Shown: positions 49,301 through 63,318 of the stretch, one piece after another | Layout of the letters: the number at the start of each line of letters is the position of its first letter | Numbering within the stretch: the first letter of the stretch is position 1 | Assembly: GCA_963727755.1 (NCBI GenBank) | Contig: CAVSHN010000008.1 | Span: 541,156-605,155 of the forward strand | Direction of reading: 5' to 3' | Length of the DNA: 64,000 nucleotides | DNA from: an uncultured Chloroflexia bacterium | GTDB taxonomy: Bacteria > Chloroflexota > Ktedonobacteria > Ktedonobacterales > Ktedonobacteraceae | Position numbers and translations under genes: made by a program | The notes under the pieces: model-generated | Databases searched by the model: none | What the model was told of the DNA's origin: nothing | The model's input: only the letters and a program-made list of their open reading frames with translations

Positions 49301-49536
49301 CTGAATCCTTGTTTTCCCTCGCCAGTTGCACTTTTCATATGATCATAAAGCCTATAGAACATGAATGTCAAGCATTTTTCAAGCCATACTGGCGTTCTGA
49401 TATAAGCTTGGCCCGAGCACAATCATGTTGCTCAACATCTAGTAGCAATCAGCCCTACGCCTCGATCTTAAATGGGTCCCATCCCTTATATCAAAACATC
49501 AGTTTGGGCATACGCCAAGCTCCAGTGCTGTGGAAG

Positions 49537-49884
49537 TCACACTTGCAAGGACTTCCTAGATCGCTTTTGCCTTTTCCCACCATCTTTCTTAACTGGAGAG
49601 TCACTAAGCGCACGAAGTACCGCTTCAGGTTCGCGGTCAATCACCTTGAGGAAAGCCTGTGCAGGACCAGAAGGCACCGCTCGTCCTTGTTCCCATTCTT
49701 GCACAGTGCGAACACTTACACCAAAATGAGCCGCAAATTGGCTCTGGCTCATCCCAATTTTTTCACGAATGCGTGCTGTATCAATTTCAGGAGGGATATG
49801 GACGACACAGCCATTGTCCTCACCACGAGCGAAGGCTAGAGCTTCATTTACGCTATCGATCAAGCTTTGCCCAAAACTAGTCAT
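49537..49884 (-). CDS. HigA/XRE-type HTH antitoxin
   Basis: HTH (IREKIGMSQSQFAAHFGVSVRTVQEWEQGRAVPSGPAQAFLKV). Its ATG overlaps the stop of the upstream toxin remnant (ATGA). Confidence 0.65.
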   Translation of the reverse strand: MTSFGQSLIDSVNEALAFARGEDNGCVVHIPPEIDTARIREKIGMSQSQFAAHFGVSVRTVQEWEQGRAVPSGPAQAFLKVIDREPEAVLRALSDSPVKKDGGKRQKRSRKSLQV

Positions 49885-50130
49885 GATTTATTTCTCCTTC
49901 GATATGTGTCAGCAAGCGCGGCAAGCGTTACCTTCAACTCATTCCGTTCCGCTTGTGTTATATCAGCTCTCTCGTTTTTTGCAATTACGCGCTCCCCCTG
50001 TTCCCTTAATCTCATCCCCAGCATCAGGGTTAGCTGCTACAAAATTCACAATTTCATCGTGCTCTTCATCGGACATCCCAAGCAATTTTACATCTCGCTG
50101 AAAGCGATCCGTTTCAACAACCGTTTGCAT
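49882..50130 (-). pseudogene. Remnant of a HigB/RelE-like toxin (DUF1044 type), truncated and frame-shifted
   Basis: MQTVVETDRFQRDVKLLGMSDEEHDEIVNFVAANPDAGDEIKGTGGAR, then after an A6 run (plus-strand T6 49975-49980) IAKNERADITQAERNELKVTLAALADTYRR. The central toxin core is absent. Confidence 0.4.
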
Positions 50131-50263
50131 ATTCTAACTATACGTATCTAACGTACATTTGTCAAGTGGAAATAGAGAAAATGGTATGCACTGTATTTTT
50201 TCCTGAGTGGATTGTTGACCTTTCATGCCTAGTCCCGTAGAATGAGAGAAAAAATCAAACCAT

Positions 50264-54238: not shown

Positions 54239-55213
54239 ATGGCATTGGCAAATTCTACACACAATGATCCACAACCATACGATAGTCTCGTAAAGCATCT
54301 TTTTCGTAGTGAAGCAAAGGAGATCATTCCACTACTGCTGCAAGGAGCGGAAGTACTCAGCGATCAAAACATCGAAATTGACCGCAGCACCTTAAAAGTG
54401 GATCTAGCACTCAAAATTCTCTATTGGAGAGAATTAGCTATTCTCCATTTCGAGGCGCAAAGCGACGAGGATGAGGATATGGAGAAACGGATGAGCATCT
54501 ATAATGCAGGCCTGCACAGCACATACGGCCTACCAGTCATCTCCATCCTGCTCTACCTGTTCAAATGTGCAACAGTGGAACCACCCTACCATGTGACATG
54601 CGCTGGCCGCAAATGCTCATCGTGCTACTATGAGGTGATTCGCCTTTGGGAGGTAGATCCACAGCCATATATCAATCGTCATACTGTTCCACTCTACGTG
54701 CTGCTACCCGGAATGAAGAAGCCATCGGTTGCTCTTCTCAAACAAGCAATCAAGGAAATTACCGAGTACTACGACGAGAGGCGTGCAGTAGAGCGACTCA
54801 TCCAATTTGGCGTAATGCTCAAACGGACGACGACCGTCTCAGCATCAAATAAGAAAAAGATTCAGGAGGCACTCAACATGTATTCACCGTATCGAAATTT
54901 CATAAAACAAAATCCTGACGTTGAGCAGATTGCAAAGGAAAAAGAGATGGAAGGTGAGATCAAAGGCAAGGTTAATTCGATTTTAAAGATTCTAACCTTT
55001 CGTTTTCCGAATGACATGCTCATCGATCTCGCTAAACAAGCTCTAGGCGACATTCAAGACATCCAAGTCCTTGATCAACTTGAATTTGAGGCTCTTAGTT
55101 CTCCAGATAAACAATATATACACAAGCGGCTGGACAAGTATTTGCCTCAAAACAAAACTAAAAGCACTGTAGAAGGTGACTCAGAGAGTAGTACAGAAAG
55201 TGAGACTGAATAA
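54239..55213 (+). CDS. Rpn-family PD-(D/E)XK recombination-promoting nuclease / putative transposase with a C-terminal DUF4351-like region
   Basis: N-terminal pattern (YDSLVKHLF, ILHFEAQSDED, LPVISILLY, YEVIRLWEVD) and C-terminal ILKILTFRFPNDMLIDLAKQALGDIQ match this family. It lies inside the suf operon. Confidence 0.55.
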   Translation: MALANSTHNDPQPYDSLVKHLFRSEAKEIIPLLLQGAEVLSDQNIEIDRSTLKVDLALKILYWRELAILHFEAQSDEDEDMEKRMSIYNAGLHSTYGLPVISILLYLFKCATVEPPYHVTCAGRKCSSCYYEVIRLWEVDPQPYINRHTVPLYVLLPGMKKPSVALLKQAIKEITEYYDERRAVERLIQFGVMLKRTTTVSASNKKKIQEALNMYSPYRNFIKQNPDVEQIAKEKEMEGEIKGKVNSILKILTFRFPNDMLIDLAKQALGDIQDIQVLDQLEFEALSSPDKQYIHKRLDKYLPQNKTKSTVEGDSESSTESETE

Positions 55214-55225
55214 GTAGAACAAACT

Positions 55226-56594
55226 ATGGCTACATTTGACAACACATTACACATCGCACAAACCAAACCCATCATGCGCCCCACCGAGGAGATCCGCAAG
55301 GATTTCCCTATTCTCTCACATAAGGTGCATGGCAAGCCACTGGTGTACTTAGATAGTACGGCCAGTTCGCAGAAGCCCACAGTTGTGCTTGAAACGATGG
55401 AGCACTACTACCGAACCTACAATGCCAACATCCATCGCGGCGTCTACCACATAAGTGAAGAGGCGACAGCCGCAATGGACAAGGCGCGTGTGAAAATCGC
55501 TCGTTTCATCAAGGCACGCCAGAGCAAGCAAATCATCTTCACGCGCAACACGACCGAGAGTATCAACCTTGTGGCCTATAGCTGGGGGGATGCAAACATT
55601 CATGCTGGCGACTTGATTGTACTGACCGAGATGGAACATCACAGCAATCTTGTCCCCTGGCAACTGCTAGCTCAGCGTACAGGTGCCCATCTAGAATTTA
55701 TCCCGGTAAGTGATGAGGGCCTATTGCGTCTAGACATCTATCAGGAAGTCTTGCAACGGCAGCCAAAATTGGTAGCGTTTACCCACATGTCCAATGTCCT
55801 GGGAACAATCAATCCCGCCAAAGAGATGATCGCACAGGCGCATGCAGCGGGAGCCACAGTACTGCTAGATGCAGCCCAGAGTGTGCCTCACTTACCAGTC
55901 AATGTAGAGGATCTCGACGTCGATTTCCTGGCTTTCAGTGGACATAAGATGCTTGGTCCTACAGGTATTGGTGTCCTTTATGGCAAACGAGCATTATTAG
56001 AAGCCATGCCTCCATTTATGGGCGGTGGCGACATGATCCGCACGGTACACCTGCGCGAATTCTACTTGGAACGATCTACCATGGAAATTTGAGGCCGGAA
56101 CACCAGCCATTGCTGAGGCTATTGGTCTGGGAGTTGCGGTAGATTATTTGAATGAGTTATTGCAGTATCCTCCAACGGACCAAAGAGAAAACCCAACAGA
56201 CATGGGCAATCCCAACGGAGCAAAGCTCAACATGTCAAGCAATCTTGTATCGAGCATGGCAGCGGTACAACAACACGAGAGTGAGATAACAGCCTATGCC
56301 ATGGAGCAGTTACAAGCAATTGCTGGCTTGAAAATCTATGGACCCGATGCCAACCAACGTGGCGGAGTCATCTCTTTCACACTAGATGATATCCACCCAC
56401 ACGATCTGGCCTCGATCCTAGACCAAGAAGTGGGTGTAGCAATCCGTGCTGGCCATCATTGCGCCCAACCCTTGATGGACCGATTTGGGCTAGCCGCAAC
56501 GGCCCGTGCCAGCTTCTATATCTACACACTTCCAGCAGAAATTGATATACTAGTACAGGGATTACGCAAGGCACAAGAAATCTTTCGTTTCTAG
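55226..56594 (+). CDS. sufS: Cysteine desulfurase SufS, frame interrupted
   Basis: PLP Lys in FSGHKMLGPTGIG and catalytic Cys in RAGHHCAQP. ORFs 55226..56092 and 56148..56594 join at about 56063-56067 (REF then TWNDLPWKFEAGTP). About a 40-aa insertion follows DYLNEL. Confidence 0.85.
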
Positions 56595-56627: not shown

Positions 56628-57029
56628 ATGGCAATAGACTATCGAGAATATATACTGGACCATTATCGTGATCCACGCAACTATGGAGAGCTAGCACATC
56701 CTGATGTGCATTGCGAGGACTTCAACCCACTCTGTGGCGATCAACTTGCTATGGACTTACAAATCGAGAGCGACCGCGTCACAGATGTACGCTTCCACGG
56801 GCGAGGCTGTGCGATTAGTCAGGCAGCCGCCTCAATGCTCACTGAAATGATCGAAGGCAAGACCGTGCAGAGAGGTAATTGCTCTGGGGAAAGATGATGT
56901 TCTGGAAGCACTTGGTATTCCCATCAGCCCAGCTCGTACAAAATGTGCATTTCTCTCCCTACGAGTACTGCACCGTGGCCTCGCCCTTGCAGGCCTTGAG
57001 AAGCCTGCAGAAGACGATGAAGTATAATT
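56628..57029 (+). CDS. sufU: SufU/NifU-like Fe-S scaffold, frame interrupted
   Basis: CGD, HGRGCAIS and KCAFLS Cys motifs. ORF 56628..56897 continues as EVIALGKDDVLEALGIPISPARTKCAFLSL after a 1-nt shift near 56866-56870. Confidence 0.75.
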
Positions 57030-57422: not shown

Positions 57423-57914
57423 CTATTCCCCTTGTGGCTGTGGCAATCGACCAAGTATCGTTTTCAGCAGTTGCCCATGCTTACGCTGATTTTCCTTAAT
57501 CTCGCTTTGGGTGCGTTCAATCCTATCAAGACTTTTATCATGCCCATCAAGCACTTGTTCAATCCTGTCCAGGCGTTTATCATGCCCATCAAGCATTCGT
57601 TCAATCCTGTCAAAGCGCTTATCATGCCCATCAAGTATTCGTTCAATCCTGTCAAAGCGTTTACCATACCTCTCAAGCGCTTGTTCAACGCCATCAAAGC
57701 GCTCCCTTACATCGCCTATATCGAGCGTAAGGCCATTGACAGCACCGATGATCTGCTGAAGATTGAATTTATGACGTTGTGAGAGTTTTATAAGTGCCTC
57801 CTCGTTTTTGATGATATCACCGCAGAGCTGTTCAATATCTGTTACACGCTGTTCTAAGCTAGATTGATTGTCGTTGGGCAGGTTCATACAGGGTGTCCGT
57901 CCTTTCCTATGCAA
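57423..57914 (-). CDS. Coiled-coil protein with four 11-residue (33-nt) tandem repeats LDGHDKRFDRIER
   Basis: 33-nt DNA period at 57525-57690 is in frame. No known family. Confidence 0.45.
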   Translation of the reverse strand: MHRKGRTPCMNLPNDNQSSLEQRVTDIEQLCGDIIKNEEALIKLSQRHKFNLQQIIGAVNGLTLDIGDVRERFDGVEQALERYGKRFDRIERILDGHDKRFDRIERMLDGHDKRLDRIEQVLDGHDKSLDRIERTQSEIKENQRKHGQLLKTILGRLPQPQGE

Positions 57915-58201
57915 TTAGTCATTTGGGACTTCCTAACCGTCCCCTGACATCGTCTTGGCAGCGACAATAATATACTACAAGATGTAGTATATTATACGTG
58001 TCAATATATCTATATATGAGTAGCAAGAAATGAGTAGACCACATTGACAGACAGATATCCTCAGCAAATCCTCCGCACACCCGGTTAGTACTAGAACATA
58101 GCCTTAAAAGCTGAAGCTATGCTATAATGCCCCAAACTATCTCTTCTCTTTCGTTTTTGGATGAGCCAAGATTATCCAGGCTATAAGAAAGACAATCAAG
58201 C

Positions 58202-58897
58202 ATGATTATTGGGAAGATCGCCAAATCAGACTCACACATCAACTACGTTTGCCAGATCTTTGGTCCACGCGAAGCTGAGGTCATGCCTACCTCACCTGAT
58301 TATGCCTTCGGGCGCTTTGTACGAGTAGCTATTCGTGCCGCACAGGATGAGGATGACAAGGCATCAATGAGGCCTAGCCACAATCATAAGCCCATTACCT
58401 ACGCTATCGGCGTGATCTACGATACTATTCTCGTCAATCCACAGTTCGGTGCACTAGGGCCACGCCTCTCCAACGAAACTCAGGTTGAGCTATTCTCTCC
58501 CGACTATATCTCTGAGAAGGCTGTCCTGATTTATATCATGATCTTGGGTGTCATGGTAATGCGTCAATCCTCCCAGAGCATACCCGAGGTTCTTTCAGTA
58601 ATGCATGGTATTCCCCCCTTGTCCCTGGATCTGGATAGCGAGATTGAGACGATGACTGATCAAGAAGTACAAAGCTTCCACTTCTTTAAAGATGCCGTTG
58701 AAGACTCTGGTACTCTACATCCCTACCTGCACATGGGCTATCTACCCCATATCATTGCACAGCGTAACAGTCTGCTCCCCATGGTCACACTTCGCATTAT
58801 CGACCAATTGGAGCGTCTGTTCCCACAGGATCTTGCCCTACTCTTAATTGTCAAACGTAACTTTGCTTGGCGACTTAAAGTGGAAACAACTGGTTAG
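58202..58897 (+). CDS. Hypothetical protein, first gene of the HerA-like cassette
   Basis: 231 aa, no recognisable domain. 16 nt upstream of the HerA-like gene. Confidence 0.4.
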   Translation: MIIGKIAKSDSHINYVCQIFGPREAEVMPTSPDYAFGRFVRVAIRAAQDEDDKASMRPSHNHKPITYAIGVIYDTILVNPQFGALGPRLSNETQVELFSPDYISEKAVLIYIMILGVMVMRQSSQSIPEVLSVMHGIPPLSLDLDSEIETMTDQEVQSFHFFKDAVEDSGTLHPYLHMGYLPHIIAQRNSLLPMVTLRIIDQLERLFPQDLALLLIVKRNFAWRLKVETTG

Positions 58898-58913
58898 CAG
58901 AGGTTAACATTCC

Positions 58914-60641
58914 ATGCTCGATCAAAAGACATTCCAACTCGCCTCCTTGCGCAAACCCGTAGGGATTACCAAAGGACCAGGCGAGACCATTCACGAATAT
59001 ACCTTCGTTTCACGCGATGATCTGCAGATACTCAAAAATGGTGAGTATGTGTATTATGAACTCATCGATCCTGATCTAGCAACTATAAATGGCAATGCCG
59101 CTCCCACTCGCCGAGTACTTGGGCGTATCCTCAAACGCGTCCCTCTACAGCTCTACCCGGATACATTTTTAGGTGAACCAGAGATCTCACCTGCTCAGGT
59201 TGCAGCTATGGTGGGTTACAATACACATACAAATGAACTTTTCGAACTGCACGTTGCTATCATGGGCTACTACGACCCTGCAACTGCTTCATTTATCAAT
59301 CCTTGGATTCCTCCCCAATCCGGCAAGCAGATCTTCCTGGCAGACAACCAGATGCTCGAAGAAGTTCTGAGCCGTAAGCGGGACCGCCAGTTCGGTTCCG
59401 CAACCATCGGCTCTCTGCTAACCCGACCGCTAGGCGCAGTTCCGATCGTATTATCAGTCAAGGACTTGGTCAGCACACACCTAGCCATCATTGCCAGTAC
59501 TGGTGCCGGTAAAAGCTATCTAGCCAGCGTGATTATTGAGGAACTGATGCAGCCACATAATAAAGCCTGTATCTTGATTATCGATCCTCACGGTGAATAT
59601 AGCACCCTTGATCAGATCGCTAACACTCCTCAGTTCGAAGAGCCCGGCGACGGTCGCGGTAGCGGCTACCGAGCAGAAGTGCGTATCTACAAGCCCGAAC
59701 AAGTCAAGGTGCGAATTTCTTCACTGAACATGGGCGATATGCGCCAACTGCTGCCGGAGATGACTGAGAAGCAGCAATATTTGCTAAGCAGGGCACTACG
59801 CAAGGTTCGCGAGACCAAACGTGGTACCCCCTGGAGCGTGGCTGATCTTAAGCAGGCCATCAAGGCCGTCTCGCGCCAGAAAAACGATGAGGATAGCGAA
59901 GGGGCCGACAATTCTAGCACTGTCCATGCTCTGACATGGCGAGTGGAGCAGATTTTTGAGCATAGCTTTACCTTCGACGATACACAGCACCTAGACTTAC
60001 CAGAAATTTTCAAACCGGGCCTGTGCACAGTCTTACAGCTCAACGAGATTGATGAGCGTGACCAGCAAGTGGTGGTAGCAACCTTGCTACGCCGCTTGAA
60101 CCAAGCGCGTATGGATACCGAGCGAGGAAAAGTACATTCAGGCGAGTCCTATCTGCCCTATCCCGTCTTTGTACTACTGGAGGAGGCCCATCACTTTGCT
60201 CCTGGCGGCACCGAAGTTGTTTCGACAGCTATTCTCAAACAAGTGCTGGCCGAGGGACGTAAATTTGGTATTGGTGTTGGTCTAATCAGTCAGCGCCCCG
60301 GCAAATTGGATGCCGATGTACTCAGTCAGTGCCAGACGCAATGCATCATGCGTATAGTCAACGAGTTAGACCAGAAAAGCGTTGCCACCACTATTGAAGG
60401 AGTAGGACAAGATCTGCTAGGTAATTTGCCTGCACTTTCTAAAGGTCAAGTCATCGTTGCTGGAGCAGCCGTGAATACACCCATTATTTGTCGTGTACGA
60501 CAGCGCTATACACAGCATGGAGGCGAAAGTAAAGACGCCCCTGATATGTGGCAAAAATATTTCAGCCGAGAGACGCAAGAAACCAGAAAACGTACTGAAG
60601 CGCCATTGAACGGCAATAGAGGCTTTAACTTGTTGAGGTGA
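58914..60641 (+). CDS. HerA/FtsK-like ATPase (DUF87 / HerA central-domain family)
   Basis: N-terminal barrel-like region, then Walker A IIASTGAGKSY, ILIIDPHGEY, Walker B VFVLLEEAHHF and an Arg-finger region GVGLISQRPGKLD. Confidence 0.7.
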   Translation: MLDQKTFQLASLRKPVGITKGPGETIHEYTFVSRDDLQILKNGEYVYYELIDPDLATINGNAAPTRRVLGRILKRVPLQLYPDTFLGEPEISPAQVAAMVGYNTHTNELFELHVAIMGYYDPATASFINPWIPPQSGKQIFLADNQMLEEVLSRKRDRQFGSATIGSLLTRPLGAVPIVLSVKDLVSTHLAIIASTGAGKSYLASVIIEELMQPHNKACILIIDPHGEYSTLDQIANTPQFEEPGDGRGSGYRAEVRIYKPEQVKVRISSLNMGDMRQLLPEMTEKQQYLLSRALRKVRETKRGTPWSVADLKQAIKAVSRQKNDEDSEGADNSSTVHALTWRVEQIFEHSFTFDDTQHLDLPEIFKPGLCTVLQLNEIDERDQQVVVATLLRRLNQARMDTERGKVHSGESYLPYPVFVLLEEAHHFAPGGTEVVSTAILKQVLAEGRKFGIGVGLISQRPGKLDADVLSQCQTQCIMRIVNELDQKSVATTIEGVGQDLLGNLPALSKGQVIVAGAAVNTPIICRVRQRYTQHGGESKDAPDMWQKYFSRETQETRKRTEAPLNGNRGFNLLR

Positions 60642-60642
60642 T

Positions 60643-61008
60643 ATGTCTACACGGTCATCAATTCATAAACTATTCCTGATCGCTCTATTTGCTTGGAGTG
60701 GACTGCTTCTTTTCACCTATTTTGTAAAGCCACAATCTGCACTAGCCTTCATAATCTTCCTGCTGATTGTGAGTGTAGCACTGACCAGTACGCTCGCGAT
60801 CATAGCTTATGGCATTAGTCGCTATCTATTTACATCCCGCGTTTACCGTGCAACTATTCGGCGAGCAATTCACCAAGGAGCGCTCTTATCTCTAGCAATT
60901 GTGCTAGACCTGATTTTGCGCATACTACATAGTGGGAATATTTTCACAGCGATTATGATTGTCGGGGCTACACTTGTACTAGAAGTGCTGACTTTAGCCA
61001 AGAAATAG
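60643..61008 (+). CDS. Small 4-TM membrane protein, translationally coupled to the HerA-like gene
   Basis: Starts 2 nt after the HerA stop. Four hydrophobic helices. Confidence 0.45.
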   Translation: MSTRSSIHKLFLIALFAWSGLLLFTYFVKPQSALAFIIFLLIVSVALTSTLAIIAYGISRYLFTSRVYRATIRRAIHQGALLSLAIVLDLILRILHSGNIFTAIMIVGATLVLEVLTLAKK

Positions 61009-61127
61009 CACTGATAAGAGTTATGCTACCTAGTCGCGCCAGAGTGCCCCTTGCAAGAGCCTTGGGGGTGAATGGCGCTTCCTTTCGGGGTGGGTTGGGA
61101 TGTGTGGGCCGCGTAGGCGGCGTGTGC

Positions 61128-62429
61128 TTAAGCACACTGCTCACCGCTCTGATAGCTGTACCCGTCCATCTTATGCACTACTTTACAATATCTGTAGCCT
61201 GTATCGAAACGAGTACCATCCTTTCTATAGAGTTTGAAATTACCTGTTTCACGTGCTGCAATGCGTCCAATATGCACTCCAGCATTCTTGAGGTGTGATG
61301 GCCTCACAGCTTTCACAATATCCCCAGTCTGGAAGCCATAGAAGATCTTGGCTTGCTTCGCCCCGCCGACTGGAAAACCGTACTTATCGTGATTTTGGAC
61401 TTGACGGCATCCATGTCCGTAAGCGCGAATTTGCAAGGGTTGCACACCTCTTATATTCAGAACTGCTGGTGTGCTCTTCCCCACGCACGCTGCGTCTAGC
61501 CAATGAGTCTTCGACAACTTGCGGTTGGTCCGGTTGAACTTGGTGAGCCCACCAGAACCGCACTCAATTGGTAAGCCAAAACCTTGCAAGCGCCTGAACA
61601 ATTCCCATCGTGTTGCATTCACAGCAGCAGCATCTTTGAGAGGTGCTTTTGCGAAGGCTTCGATCTTCTTCAAGAGATCTGGCTTTTTCTTGAGGAACTC
61701 CTCTATGTTCTTGGTTCCCTTGGCTAGATTGCGTTTCTCGCATGAGAGGCACAAATTGCTCACTCTGTTTGAACCTCCTTTAGCACGAGGAACAATATGC
61801 TCAATTTGCAGAGGAATATTTTCCTTGCCGCAATATGTACACTTATGTTCCCACTTGTGCAAGAGATATTCACGGACTTCATATCCTGCCAAAGTACCTT
61901 GCTGATATTCAGTGCCGGATATCTCAGCATTTTCCATCAGTTGCATATCGAACTTCACCAGCTCCATGCTGATGTTCGTGATATGACACACTCGTGCCAA
62001 ACGTTGGACCCAGGTGAGTATATTGCTGATCCGACTCTGGAGCGATGGTGGCAACCAGCCAGATGCTCGTCTTCTGTTTTGCCATCGTGGTTTGCGATTG
62101 CGGGTATGGCGTGCTCGTCTGCCTCTGCGTGAACCTCGCCGATCGTCTAAGCTCTTTTTGATGGCTTGCCCACGATGTGACAACTCCGCTGTGTAGACGA
62201 CTCTGCCGCTAGCATCATCGACAATCGCTATGCCCGTGGTTCTTGAGCCTGGATCAAGCTTGACCCGCAAATCGGGAACTTTCGGACTCTCAACCGCATA
62301 CTTCAGGATGATGGCGAATGGGAATTTGCGATATATGGCAGCTTTACCTGCATCCAGCAGTATCCTTGCTTTAGCCTCATGGCATGGAGCAAGCGGTACT
62401 TTGTTAGTGTCCATGACGAAAACTGACAT
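61128..62429 (-). CDS. iscB: IscB, the Cas9-ancestor RNA-guided HNH/RuvC nuclease
   Basis: 433 aa. PLMP domain (NKVPLAPCH), RuvC-I LDPGSRTTGIAIVD, Arg-rich bridge helix, RuvC-II ISMELVKFD, HNH CTYCG...IEHIVPRAKGGSNRVSNLCLSCEKRN, RuvC-III HWLDAAC. All catalytic residues are present. Confidence 0.8.
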   Translation of the reverse strand: MSVFVMDTNKVPLAPCHEAKARILLDAGKAAIYRKFPFAIILKYAVESPKVPDLRVKLDPGSRTTGIAIVDDASGRVVYTAELSHRGQAIKKSLDDRRGSRRGRRARHTRNRKPRWQNRRRASGWLPPSLQSRISNILTWVQRLARVCHITNISMELVKFDMQLMENAEISGTEYQQGTLAGYEVREYLLHKWEHKCTYCGKENIPLQIEHIVPRAKGGSNRVSNLCLSCEKRNLAKGTKNIEEFLKKKPDLLKKIEAFAKAPLKDAAAVNATRWELFRRLQGFGLPIECGSGGLTKFNRTNRKLSKTHWLDAACVGKSTPAVLNIRGVQPLQIRAYGHGCRQVQNHDKYGFPVGGAKQAKIFYGFQTGDIVKAVRPSHLKNAGVHIGRIAARETGNFKLYRKDGTRFDTGYRYCKVVHKMDGYSYQSGEQCA

Positions 62430-62700
62430 GTGTAAAATTCCTTTCGGAACCTGGAAACCCAGGTGATGTGTGCCTCGACAATGTTATCGACCCGGTACTT
62501 TCTGATGAGCACTGGCTTAACCCTTGTACACCTGTTTAACCCATCAGTTCTAGAGCAGCACGCTGGCAACGCACGTGCAGGTAGGAACTTTAACTCTCAT
62601 CGATAACGTAGCAGAGTCGCCTCTGCTGAGTCTGGTCATGTGAGCTTGTGAAACGATGCTAGCACCGCTCCACAAGCCCCTGCCCGCAAAGGCATGGGGT
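62430..62700 (-). ncRNA. Putative IscB omega-RNA scaffold
   Basis: About 270 nt directly 5' of iscB and abutting the element's 5' end. It is conserved in the orphan copy at 9516-9783 with compensatory stem changes. ORFs 62303..62569 and 9516..9758 across it are not credible genes. Confidence 0.55.
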
Positions 62701-63318
62701 TCATGACCTTTCTTTATTGATACCTCGTTTCCTATACTTTCGGAATGGCTCAAAAGCGGGGAGAACAACTCTATCATAAATTTCTTCGACGGGAACAGTC
62801 AAGCCAATACTTTGTAATTCCACATTTTCACCTTGCTTAAACCATGTAGTCAGCCATTGCCCGCCTTGCCGTCTCTCTATTTGGACTAACGTGCATTCAT
62901 AGTTAATAAGGACATACTCTTGAATGGAAGGACAATACGTATATTTAAGAAATTTTTCTCCTCTATCATCTTTTTCAGTAGAAGGAGATAATACTTCTAT
63001 TACTAATTTTGGATACTCTATATAGGTTGGATTTTCATCTTCCGCCAAATCCTTTTCATCGCATGTTACCATCAAATCAGGCAATAAACACTCATCCTCT
63101 ATTTTAAGAGTCATTTCTGTAAAAACAAAACAGGGACTTCCTTTTAGATGATTACCTAAAATGAGATGAAGATTAGATATAAGCATCCCATGGTGTTTAG
63201 AACCCCCCGCCATGGCTATCATACGACCATTTCTGTATTCGTATTTCTGGTCAAGAGATTCACGATCTAGGGCCAAGAAGTCCTCTACAGAGAACCAATC
63301 GTCTCTTTGTGCTACCAT
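62701..63318 (-). CDS. Uma2-family (DUF820) PD-(D/E)XK endonuclease
   Basis: 205 aa, similar to Uma2/putative restriction endonuclease family proteins along its length. Its 3' end is the insertion site of the IscB element. Confidence 0.65.
   Translation of the reverse strand: MVAQRDDWFSVEDFLALDRESLDQKYEYRNGRMIAMAGGSKHHGMLISNLHLILGNHLKGSPCFVFTEMTLKIEDECLLPDLMVTCDEKDLAEDENPTYIEYPKLVIEVLSPSTEKDDRGEKFLKYTYCPSIQEYVLINYECTLVQIERRQGGQWLTTWFKQGENVELQSIGLTVPVEEIYDRVVLPAFEPFRKYRKRGINKERS

Follow-up and report, generated by a model that had tools for sequence, protein, structure and literature searches.

HerA-type ATPases form hexameric rings that translocate double-stranded DNA (dsDNA), and the question arises what such a motor is used for when its gene lies between those of a 231-amino-acid (aa) protein and of a small protein with four transmembrane (4-TM) helices, close to an IscB element and a gene for an Uma2 nuclease. 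This trio of genes was found in a stretch of Ktedonobacteria DNA of 64,000 nucleotides (nt), which was analyzed at its full length (the window; all positions are given on the whole stretch). A preliminary description, made from the sequence alone, had seen in the trio a defense or DNA-translocation module and had suspected a distinct HerA-associated combination. The combination is indeed distinct, since the partner of HerA is a member of the family DUF8166 (PF26500) and not NurA, Sir2 or DUF4297. We conclude that the trio descends from an Mre11-Rad50-NurA-HerA DNA-break-repair operon and represents a derivative that has been uncoupled from NurA at this locus.

An operon around a HerA-type ATPase

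The three open reading frames (ORFs) of the trio were recovered on the forward strand exactly where the preliminary description had placed them (Table 1), and the protein directly 3' of HerA does contain the four hydrophobic helices that had been noticed. The ORFs are not due to chance, as dozens of genomes contain conserved homologs of all three in unchanged order, and the trio is a genuine operon. The DUF8166 gene ends with a TAG codon (58895-58897), 16 nt before the HerA start codon ATG, which is preceded by the sequence AGAGG. The HerA gene ends with TGA (60639-60641) and is separated by one base from the ATG of the 121-aa ORF, with GAGG located 8 nt upstream, a layout that is compatible with translational coupling of the two genes. 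The candidate promoter of the operon agrees with the consensus at 10 of 12 positions and was the top match of its region, in which the consensus scan gave 10 matches compared to 5.0 +/- 1.9 in shuffled sequence.

The assignment of the 575-aa ORF as HerA-like was confirmed by its central domain (PF01935, DUF87), which covers residues 165-395 and scored 142.3 bits against a gathering cut-off of 23.2 (E = 3e-41). Both the Walker A motif GAGKS and the Walker B motif LLEE are intact, and the first 170 aa align collinearly with the N-terminal parts of the HerA structures 9x1l and 4d2i, though with weak E-values of 0.002-0.045. In the PDB, the protein matched best was HerA from the HerA-NurA complex of Thermococcus kodakarensis (9x1l, E = 1e-48); for Sulfolobus HerA an E-value of 2e-34 was obtained. 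Among the NCBIfam models, the best one was the archaeal HerA of double-strand break (DSB) repair (NF040819) with 209.5 bits, far under its cut-off of 970; a second DSB-repair HerA model (NF040937) gave 152 bits (cut-off 800), and the anti-phage HerA models gave 95 (cut-off 800) and 81 bits (cut-off 850), all of them below the equivalog level. Scores were likewise under the cut-off for TrwB (19.8 bits, cut-off 20.5), CedD (75, cut-off 600) and VirB4 (19, cut-off 590), and no Pfam or NCBIfam match to the FtsK_SpoIIIE motor, to FtsK_4TM or to the gamma domain was obtained with the trio proteins. Because the scores lie so far under the equivalog cut-offs (210 versus 970 bits), the window HerA belongs to a separate HerA subfamily, outside every NCBIfam equivalog. 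Its closest relatives are encoded beside DUF8166: identity over the full length is 41-43% to the DUF8166-linked HerAs of Halobellus and of a Helarchaeota metagenome-assembled genome (MAG; E = 1e-146 to 1e-153), and reaches 41-63% in the best local alignments with DUF8166-linked HerAs from metagenomes, or 46-55% for complete genes. The HerAs of T. kodakarensis and Sulfolobus are far more distant, and the anti-phage HerAs more distant again. By family membership, the window HerA would be a hexameric, ATP-driven dsDNA translocase.

DUF8166, a predicted free-standing HAS-barrel protein

The preliminary description could not relate the 231-aa protein to NurA, Sir2 or DUF4297, and this part holds; the protein is, however, not without a family, but belongs to the DUF8166 proteins of break-repair operons. 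The protein itself had no match in PADLOC, NCBIfam or Pfam (in a model set that did not contain PF26500), and a sequence search of the PDB returned noise only. The PF26500 match was found on the 98% identical protein P0001 and on all 120 homologs listed. DUF8166 is a small family of 221 clusters at 50% identity, which spans Ktedonobacteria, other Chloroflexota, Cyanobacteria, Halobacteria, Nanohaloarchaea and one Helarchaeota MAG. Literature searches for PF26500 or DUF8166 yielded no relevant paper.

An AlphaFold2 (AF2) model, built with 62 diverse members of the family, reached a predicted local distance difference test score (pLDDT) of 90.9 and a predicted template modeling score (pTM) of 0.87. 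In this model a beta-barrel forms the N-terminal part and a helical hairpin the C-terminal part, and in fold comparisons it was matched best by the HerA-ATP-synthase (HAS) barrels of HerA proteins. Its structural neighbors include TdpA, the HerAs of Nezha, Deinococcus radiodurans and T. kodakarensis and the anti-phage HerAs 9c1m, 8j4u and 8wet, along with the N-terminal barrels of F1, V1, flagellar and type III secretion system (T3SS) ATPases and Gar1-type barrels. A nuclease or NADase fold, which had been considered before a structure was predicted, was not found, and structure comparison revealed neither a P-loop nor any other enzymatic fold. Judged by this model, DUF8166 is a free-standing HAS-barrel protein. 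In F1/V1/A1, flagellar and T3SS ATPases the barrel crown is always fused to the ATPase, whereas DUF8166 is a separate polypeptide with a helical hairpin of its own. Since the linked HerA retains its own N-terminal barrel region, DUF8166 is an addition rather than a piece split off HerA.

A PD-(D/E)XK-like nuclease motif (P100-D101...E105-K106) was ruled out by its wrong spacing and by the HAS-barrel fold. The 448-aa protein P0172, with DUF8166 at its N-terminus, was dismissed as an informative fusion, since its isochorismatase and RapZ_C domains are unrelated and the protein is probably a chimera. Standalone DUF8166 genes were observed in two cyanobacterial MAGs (L087/L088, 8001-8627), about 1 kb downstream of ruvC, and a 46% identical paralog lies beside an extracytoplasmic function (ECF) sigma factor gene and a DUF488 gene (L172/L173, 10001-10675). 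No HerA gene was present within 8-10 kb of these standalone genes, and the barrel protein may have HerA-independent roles.

DUF8166 and HerA in Mre11-Rad50-NurA operons

Outside Ktedonobacteria, the usual gene order is Mre11-Rad50-NurA-DUF8166-HerA, an arrangement that many bacteria and archaea possess. Among 80 metagenome loci, retrieved with DUF8166 sequences from outside Ktedonobacteria, 62 extend for 600 bp or more downstream of DUF8166, and in 60 of these HerA comes directly next; 41 extend for 1.3 kb or more upstream, and 36 of these have NurA there. Further upstream, many loci contain Rad50 and Mre11. Halobellus clavatus (L086, 397-16624) has genes for a metallophosphoesterase (Mre11), an 899-aa protein, NurA, DUF8166 and HerA, the 899-aa ORF being identified as Rad50 only as the Rad50 query itself. 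On a plasmid of Natrinema zhouii (L175, NZ_CP084885.1) the order is metallophosphoesterase, SMC family ATPase, NurA, DUF8166 and HerA, the last three labeled in RefSeq as "DNA double-strand break repair nuclease NurA", hypothetical protein and ATP-binding protein, respectively. The Helarchaeota MAG carries NurA, DUF8166 and HerA in this order, and in the gene calls of both this MAG and Halobellus the DUF8166 stop and the HerA start overlap or abut. HerA-NurA and Mre11-Rad50 act together in 5'-3' end resection (PMC3326311, PMC5715905). Given the arrangement Mre11-Rad50-NurA-DUF8166-HerA, the DUF8166-HerA pair is likely to be part of the 5'-3' end-resection machinery of recombinational repair.

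In a neighbor-joining tree of HerA with a midpoint root, the Ktedonobacteria clade is sister to a bacterial clade that is mostly NurA-linked, and two NurA-linked archaeal sequences branch outside both clades. Because of this branching, linkage to NurA looks ancestral, with three or more losses.

The haloarchaeal form of the module is located on megaplasmids or beside TraG-, TraC- and TrbL-like genes, and is accessory and mobile. Isolates of Halobellus and Haloarcula fall into one DUF8166 cluster at 90% identity together with a Nanohaloarchaea MAG, from which a recent horizontal transfer can be deduced. A role of the haloarchaeal module in defense or plasmid maintenance is possible. H. volcanii, the model haloarchaeon, is without HerA and NurA (PMC7776575). 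Upstream of the Halobellus module lies a 762-aa gene that faintly matches Piwi, and upstream of the Natrinema module lie genes for an ATPase and a DEAD-box helicase. In a bacterial contig of 2 Mb (L089, 2191-14702), Mre11-SbcC/Rad50-NurA-DUF8166 is followed by a cupin gene and then by a gene for a 1713-aa fused DEAD/UvrD-type helicase; HerA was not found downstream of DUF8166 in this contig, where the HerA motor may have been replaced by the different helicase.

A class-wide core gene set in Ktedonobacteria

A scan of one genome per GTDB species with an alignment of six DUF8166 sequences gave at least 568 loci, of which the best 80 were examined. All of these 80 belong to Ktedonobacteria (Ktedonobacter, Dictyobacter, Tengunoibacter, Thermogemmatispora, Thermosporothrix, Ktedonosporobacter and Ktedonospora, as well as strain brp13) and cover each cultured genus of the class that was sampled, and HerA directly follows the DUF8166 gene in every one that extends far enough. 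A homolog of the 121-aa protein is encoded downstream of HerA in 72 of the 74 Ktedonobacteria loci that reach far enough beyond it. Compared with the proteins of the window, DUF8166 is 57-83%, HerA 68-91% and the membrane protein 35-72% identical, and the median pairwise identity of HerA (80%) is the same as that of MoxR and above that of superoxide dismutase (SOD, 76%).

Clustering of the flanking ORFs revealed a synteny of SOD, response regulator, trio, family-9 glycosyltransferase, a 274-aa protein, MoxR and DUF58 in one third to half of the loci; the four downstream genes were counted at 48, 43, 35 and 27 of 81 Ktedonobacteria loci, respectively. No relaxase, integrase or type IV secretion system (T4SS) gene was detected in these 81 loci, and division genes are not part of the conserved synteny. 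DUF8166 had no relatives in viral contigs and phage genomes, and in the plasmid collection it was matched in haloarchaea only. Class-wide presence, shared synteny and conservation at the level of MoxR are the marks of core genes that are inherited vertically and strongly constrained.

Where it is present, the family-9 glycosyltransferase gene lies 6-27 nt after the membrane-protein gene (for example in L004, 12832-17598); it is absent from this locus in the window lineage. The 274-aa protein is proline-rich and poorly conserved.

The small membrane protein

The helices of the 121-aa protein extend over residues 3-27, 33-62, 67-95 and 101-120, as judged by hydropathy and by an AF2 model of low confidence (pLDDT 69, pTM 0.39). 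The protein had no match in Pfam, PADLOC or NCBIfam, and none of its approximately 30 homologs belongs to a Pfam family. In the searches made, these homologs were seen solely at Ktedonobacteria loci, and a small membrane gene after HerA was absent from the other loci inspected, including the inspected DUF8166-HerA pairs that lack NurA. W18, P30, L92 and E114 are invariant, and N89 and a loop R77-Q78-G79 are nearly so; the basic loop around residues 58-79 is predicted to be cytosolic. E114 in helix 4 and N89 in helix 3 are predicted to lie within the membrane, and the R-Q-G motif opens helix 3. Such conserved intramembrane residues suggest that the protein might be more than a simple anchor.

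Possible roles of the trio

The most likely role of the trio is recombinational DNA-end processing or repair, an assignment that we make with intermediate confidence. HerA would act as a hexameric ring that pumps dsDNA, and DUF8166 might assemble on or next to its HAS-barrel face, where it could serve as an adaptor, as a cap or as a regulator of nuclease coupling or DNA exit. This face, the N-terminal crown of HerA, is the docking site of the NurA dimer in HerA-NurA complexes of solved structure (PMC9960219). In Ktedonobacteria the DUF8166-HerA pair would have been separated from nurA, mre11 and rad50 and joined to the 4-TM protein, which probably tethers the motor at the cytoplasmic membrane. 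A nuclease might then act in trans, either a NurA encoded elsewhere or RecJ, as in Deinococcus, whose HerA is reported to interact with RecJ too (PMC4663267).

Several results weigh against this assignment. Searches with a NurA hidden Markov model, phmmer and tblastn revealed no NurA, Mre11 or Rad50 in the window or in the 6-10 kb flanks of the trio in 85 Ktedonobacteria loci, so that at the window locus HerA has neither an adjacent NurA (PF09376) nor linked mre11 and rad50; the exception is an SbcD-like gene, unlinked and oppositely oriented, at 5 kb from the trio in one MAG (L028). The likeness between DUF8166 and the N-terminus of HerA appears, on the models, to be structural only, as hhalign placed DUF8166 collinear with the N-termini of the linked HerAs without significance (probability 1.5%, E = 0.035). 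DUF8166 also occurs without HerA and is therefore not strictly a HerA subunit. Finally, loss of the nuclease neighbors, gain of a membrane subunit and very high conservation could together reflect a new job.

One such job would be that of a membrane-anchored DNA pump, in which HerA and the separate 4-TM protein form a split FtsK/SpoIIIE architecture and DUF8166 gates the pore. Its substrate could be chromosomal DNA that has to pass a septum or enter a spore, or else DNA that the cell releases or takes up, as with Thermus TdtA and the archaeal Ced system. Ktedonobacteria are mycelial and spore-forming, and FtsK and SpoIIIE combine a 4-TM anchor with a ring motor. In favor of a pump, the 4-TM gene is coupled to herA by its layout, was seen in the searches made only in Ktedonobacteria and is nearly constant there, and its gain coincides with the loss of linkage to nurA, mre11 and rad50; the conservation of HerA is unusual, and the intramembrane E114 and N89 hardly suit a merely passive anchor. 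The weak CedD match points in the same direction. So does a precedent in Thermus, where TdtA, a NurA-linked and membrane-associated HerA homolog, pushes DNA out of cells (PMC5365140), i.e., where a NurA/HerA-type pair has been repurposed to DNA transport. Like the trio, FtsK/SpoIIIE and TdtA are ring motors of the FtsK-HerA superfamily that are tied to four TM helices or to the membrane. The membrane part of the trio is, however, a separate polypeptide without likeness to FtsK_4TM, its motor has no FtsK/SpoIIIE family match and lacks the gamma/SpoIIIE domain, and its Ced, VirB4 and TraD matches are far under the cut-offs. TdtA has kept an adjacent NurA and is borne by an integrative and conjugative element, whereas the trio has no nuclease neighbor and belongs to the chromosomal core. 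Moreover, the conserved synteny is without T4SS, relaxase and division genes, the closest homologs are all found in break-repair operons, and the model of the TM protein, whose contact with HerA is presumed, has low confidence. On balance we regard a pump, the main alternative, as possible but doubtful. A more far-reaching reading is that DUF8166 would be an unrecognized third core subunit of the Mre11-Rad50-NurA-HerA machine, widespread in bacteria and archaea, as a free-standing HAS-barrel ring stacked on the HerA crown that controls nuclease docking or DNA exit, and that the Ktedonobacteria form, without nuclease and with a 4-TM subunit bearing a conserved intramembrane Glu, would be a split FtsK-like membrane pump essential for chromosome handling. 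We consider this reading unlikely.

Of the two functions initially proposed, DNA translocation remains reasonable, but the evidence does not support defense. In an anti-phage system, HerA would serve as a scaffold as in Sir2-HerA or DUF4297-HerA, with DUF8166, or the membrane protein by membrane disruption, as effector. It could be argued that HerA scores on the PADLOC HerA models (best 153 bits), that anti-phage HerAs are among the structural neighbors of the HAS-barrel, that IscB and Uma2 adjoin the trio in the window, that the extended module of haloarchaea is horizontally shared on megaplasmids and in conjugative regions, and that abortive infection could in principle be brought about by a small membrane protein as effector. 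Yet no PADLOC, Pfam or NCBIfam defense model matches either partner of HerA, the PADLOC scan having been among the checks proposed for the defense idea, and DUF8166 offers no enzymatic fold that could make it an effector. HerA itself is nearer to repair HerA than to the anti-phage models. The trio is chromosomal, syntenic and conserved at housekeeping level in every Ktedonobacteria genome of the best 80, the opposite of the patchy distribution typical of defense genes; the idea of a defense or mobile island is not supported, and no relatives were found in the viral and phage collections. The IscB element is a recent insertion, and adjacency to Uma2 is limited to close relatives. We therefore regard a defense role as highly improbable. 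Even less can be said for the trio as cargo of a mobile element, be it the IscB transposon or an integrative element, or as a conjugation function, a reading that is largely refuted and that we hold to be nearly untenable. The immediately adjacent IscB/HEARO element, weak P-loop matches to TrwB, TraD and VirB4, and the Halobellus homolog beside TraG-, TraC- and TrbL-like genes might point to it, but relatives at 95% DNA identity possess the trio without IscB at the site, the inserted 1.68 kb are cleanly bounded, the synteny of the trio is stable across the class, mobility genes are missing from the 81 loci, and the matches on plasmids are restricted to haloarchaea.

Comparison with known HerA systems

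The HerA-NurA machines (4d2i of Sulfolobus solfataricus, 9x1l, and 7f6d of D. radiodurans) share with the window HerA the HAS-barrel, the RecA-like core with Walker A and B motifs and the helical insertion; they provide the best sequence matches, and the orthologous DUF8166-HerA pairs of other organisms lie in Mre11-Rad50-NurA-HerA operons. In contrast to these machines, an additional gene, DUF8166, is present between nurA and herA, which is part of no characterized complex, and the trio of Ktedonobacteria lacks linked nurA, mre11 and rad50 and has gained the 4-TM protein. The Sir2-HerA (Nezha) and DUF4297-HerA systems likewise consist of a HerA hexamer and a co-encoded partner, which in those systems binds the HAS-barrel face. 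The partner in the trio, however, is a HAS-barrel look-alike instead of an effector enzyme; no Pfam or PADLOC match to Sir2 or DUF4297 was obtained with the trio partners, the trio is class-wide and syntenic rather than sporadic, and anti-phage models score under repair HerA.

What is new here is a HerA-NurA-type motor subfamily that is marked by an extra HAS-barrel subunit, DUF8166, and a class-wide form of it in Ktedonobacteria, which is uncoupled from NurA at the locus and coupled to a membrane protein. Neither the DUF8166 subunit nor the membrane-coupled form was described in the literature searched, which included a search for Ktedonobacter together with HerA. HerA-NurA has so far been studied as a two-protein machine, but a large subfamily, present in Chloroflexota, in other bacteria known from metagenome contigs, on haloarchaeal megaplasmids and in a Helarchaeota MAG, has a conserved gene between nurA and herA. 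As its product seems to mimic the nuclease-docking barrel of HerA, it is a target for work on end resection and on how HerA scaffolds, including the anti-phage ones, choose their partners. The Ktedonobacteria form, with no linked nuclease, a membrane subunit and a conservation of about 80%, is a case provided by nature in which to study how a motor of DNA repair may be directed to another task. For annotation, a HerA gene with an unassigned partner and IscB or Uma2 nearby should not be called a defense island.

Neighborhood of the trio in the window

The IscB element, the Uma2 gene and a coiled-coil gene with repeats, on which the impression of an island had been based, were all found where the preliminary description had located them (Table 1).

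Table 1. Features in and around the trio; positions refer to the window.
Feature	Position	Strand	Basis or remarks
Candidate sigma-70-like operon promoter (weak evidence)	57944-57973	+	Consensus scan only; about 230 nt 5' of the DUF8166 gene
DUF8166 (PF26500) protein, 231 aa, isoelectric point (pI) 5.6	58202-58897	+	HAS-barrel-like beta-barrel, then C-terminal helices; predicted structural partner of HerA
HerA-type ATPase, 575 aa	58914-60641	+	N-terminal HAS-barrel region, Walker A at 197-201, Walker B at 421-424
Membrane protein, 121 aa, pI 11, four helices	60643-61008	+	Hydropathy and AF2 helices
Coiled-coil gene, 163 aa	57423-57914	-	Weak DUF7201, DUF7310 and XhlA matches
IscB element insertion, 1.68 kb	~61030-62707	-	Empty site in relatives L001-L003, clean boundaries
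IscB ORF (RRXRR and HNH)	61128-62429	-	Domain matches
HEARO/omega RNA	62463-62707	-	Rfam RF02033, 120 bits
Uma2 nuclease gene	62701-63318	-	Family match

Three close relatives (L001-L003; 95-96% DNA identity, 98% identity of the DUF8166 protein) share the suf genes, the coiled-coil gene, the trio and the Uma2 gene with the window but have no IscB at the site. In these relatives the membrane-protein gene and Uma2 are 17 bp apart, and it is in this gap that the IscB element of the window is inserted, altering the last few codons of Uma2. In turn, the relatives contain a different IscB copy, of 70-73% aa identity, at a position where the window has none (~49380-50182). Because the site next to the trio is empty in relatives that carry a copy elsewhere, IscB is a recent and independent insertion and no partner of the trio, and it has been active recently in the lineage of the window. 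In more distant genomes the suf genes do not flank the trio, and as a rule Uma2 does not either; unrelated Uma2 copies (32-38% identical) are located near the trio in three loci. The island-like appearance is thus the result of a recent IscB insertion and of a lineage-specific rearrangement that brought Uma2 and suf into adjacency.

The coiled-coil gene contains a 42-bp tandem repeat (57514-57688; 4.2 copies, 84% match) and is 90% conserved in close relatives; in more distant genomes no such gene was detected at the trio locus.

The sufS gene of the window is split into two ORFs (55226-56092 and 56148-56594), and sufU (56628-56897) encodes only 89 aa compared to 132 aa in relatives. The breakage of sufS varies among the contigs L001-L003, with an intact gene of 455 aa in L003, and this fragmentation resembles the indel errors of long reads more than genuine pseudogenes, for which reason other frameshifts in the window call for equal caution. 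Between sufD and sufS lies a variable segment (54481-55215), which comprises most of a 324-aa ORF (54239-55213) without Pfam match; close relatives have non-homologous DNA in its place, in which other small ORFs occur, among them one for an EndoU-domain protein in L002.

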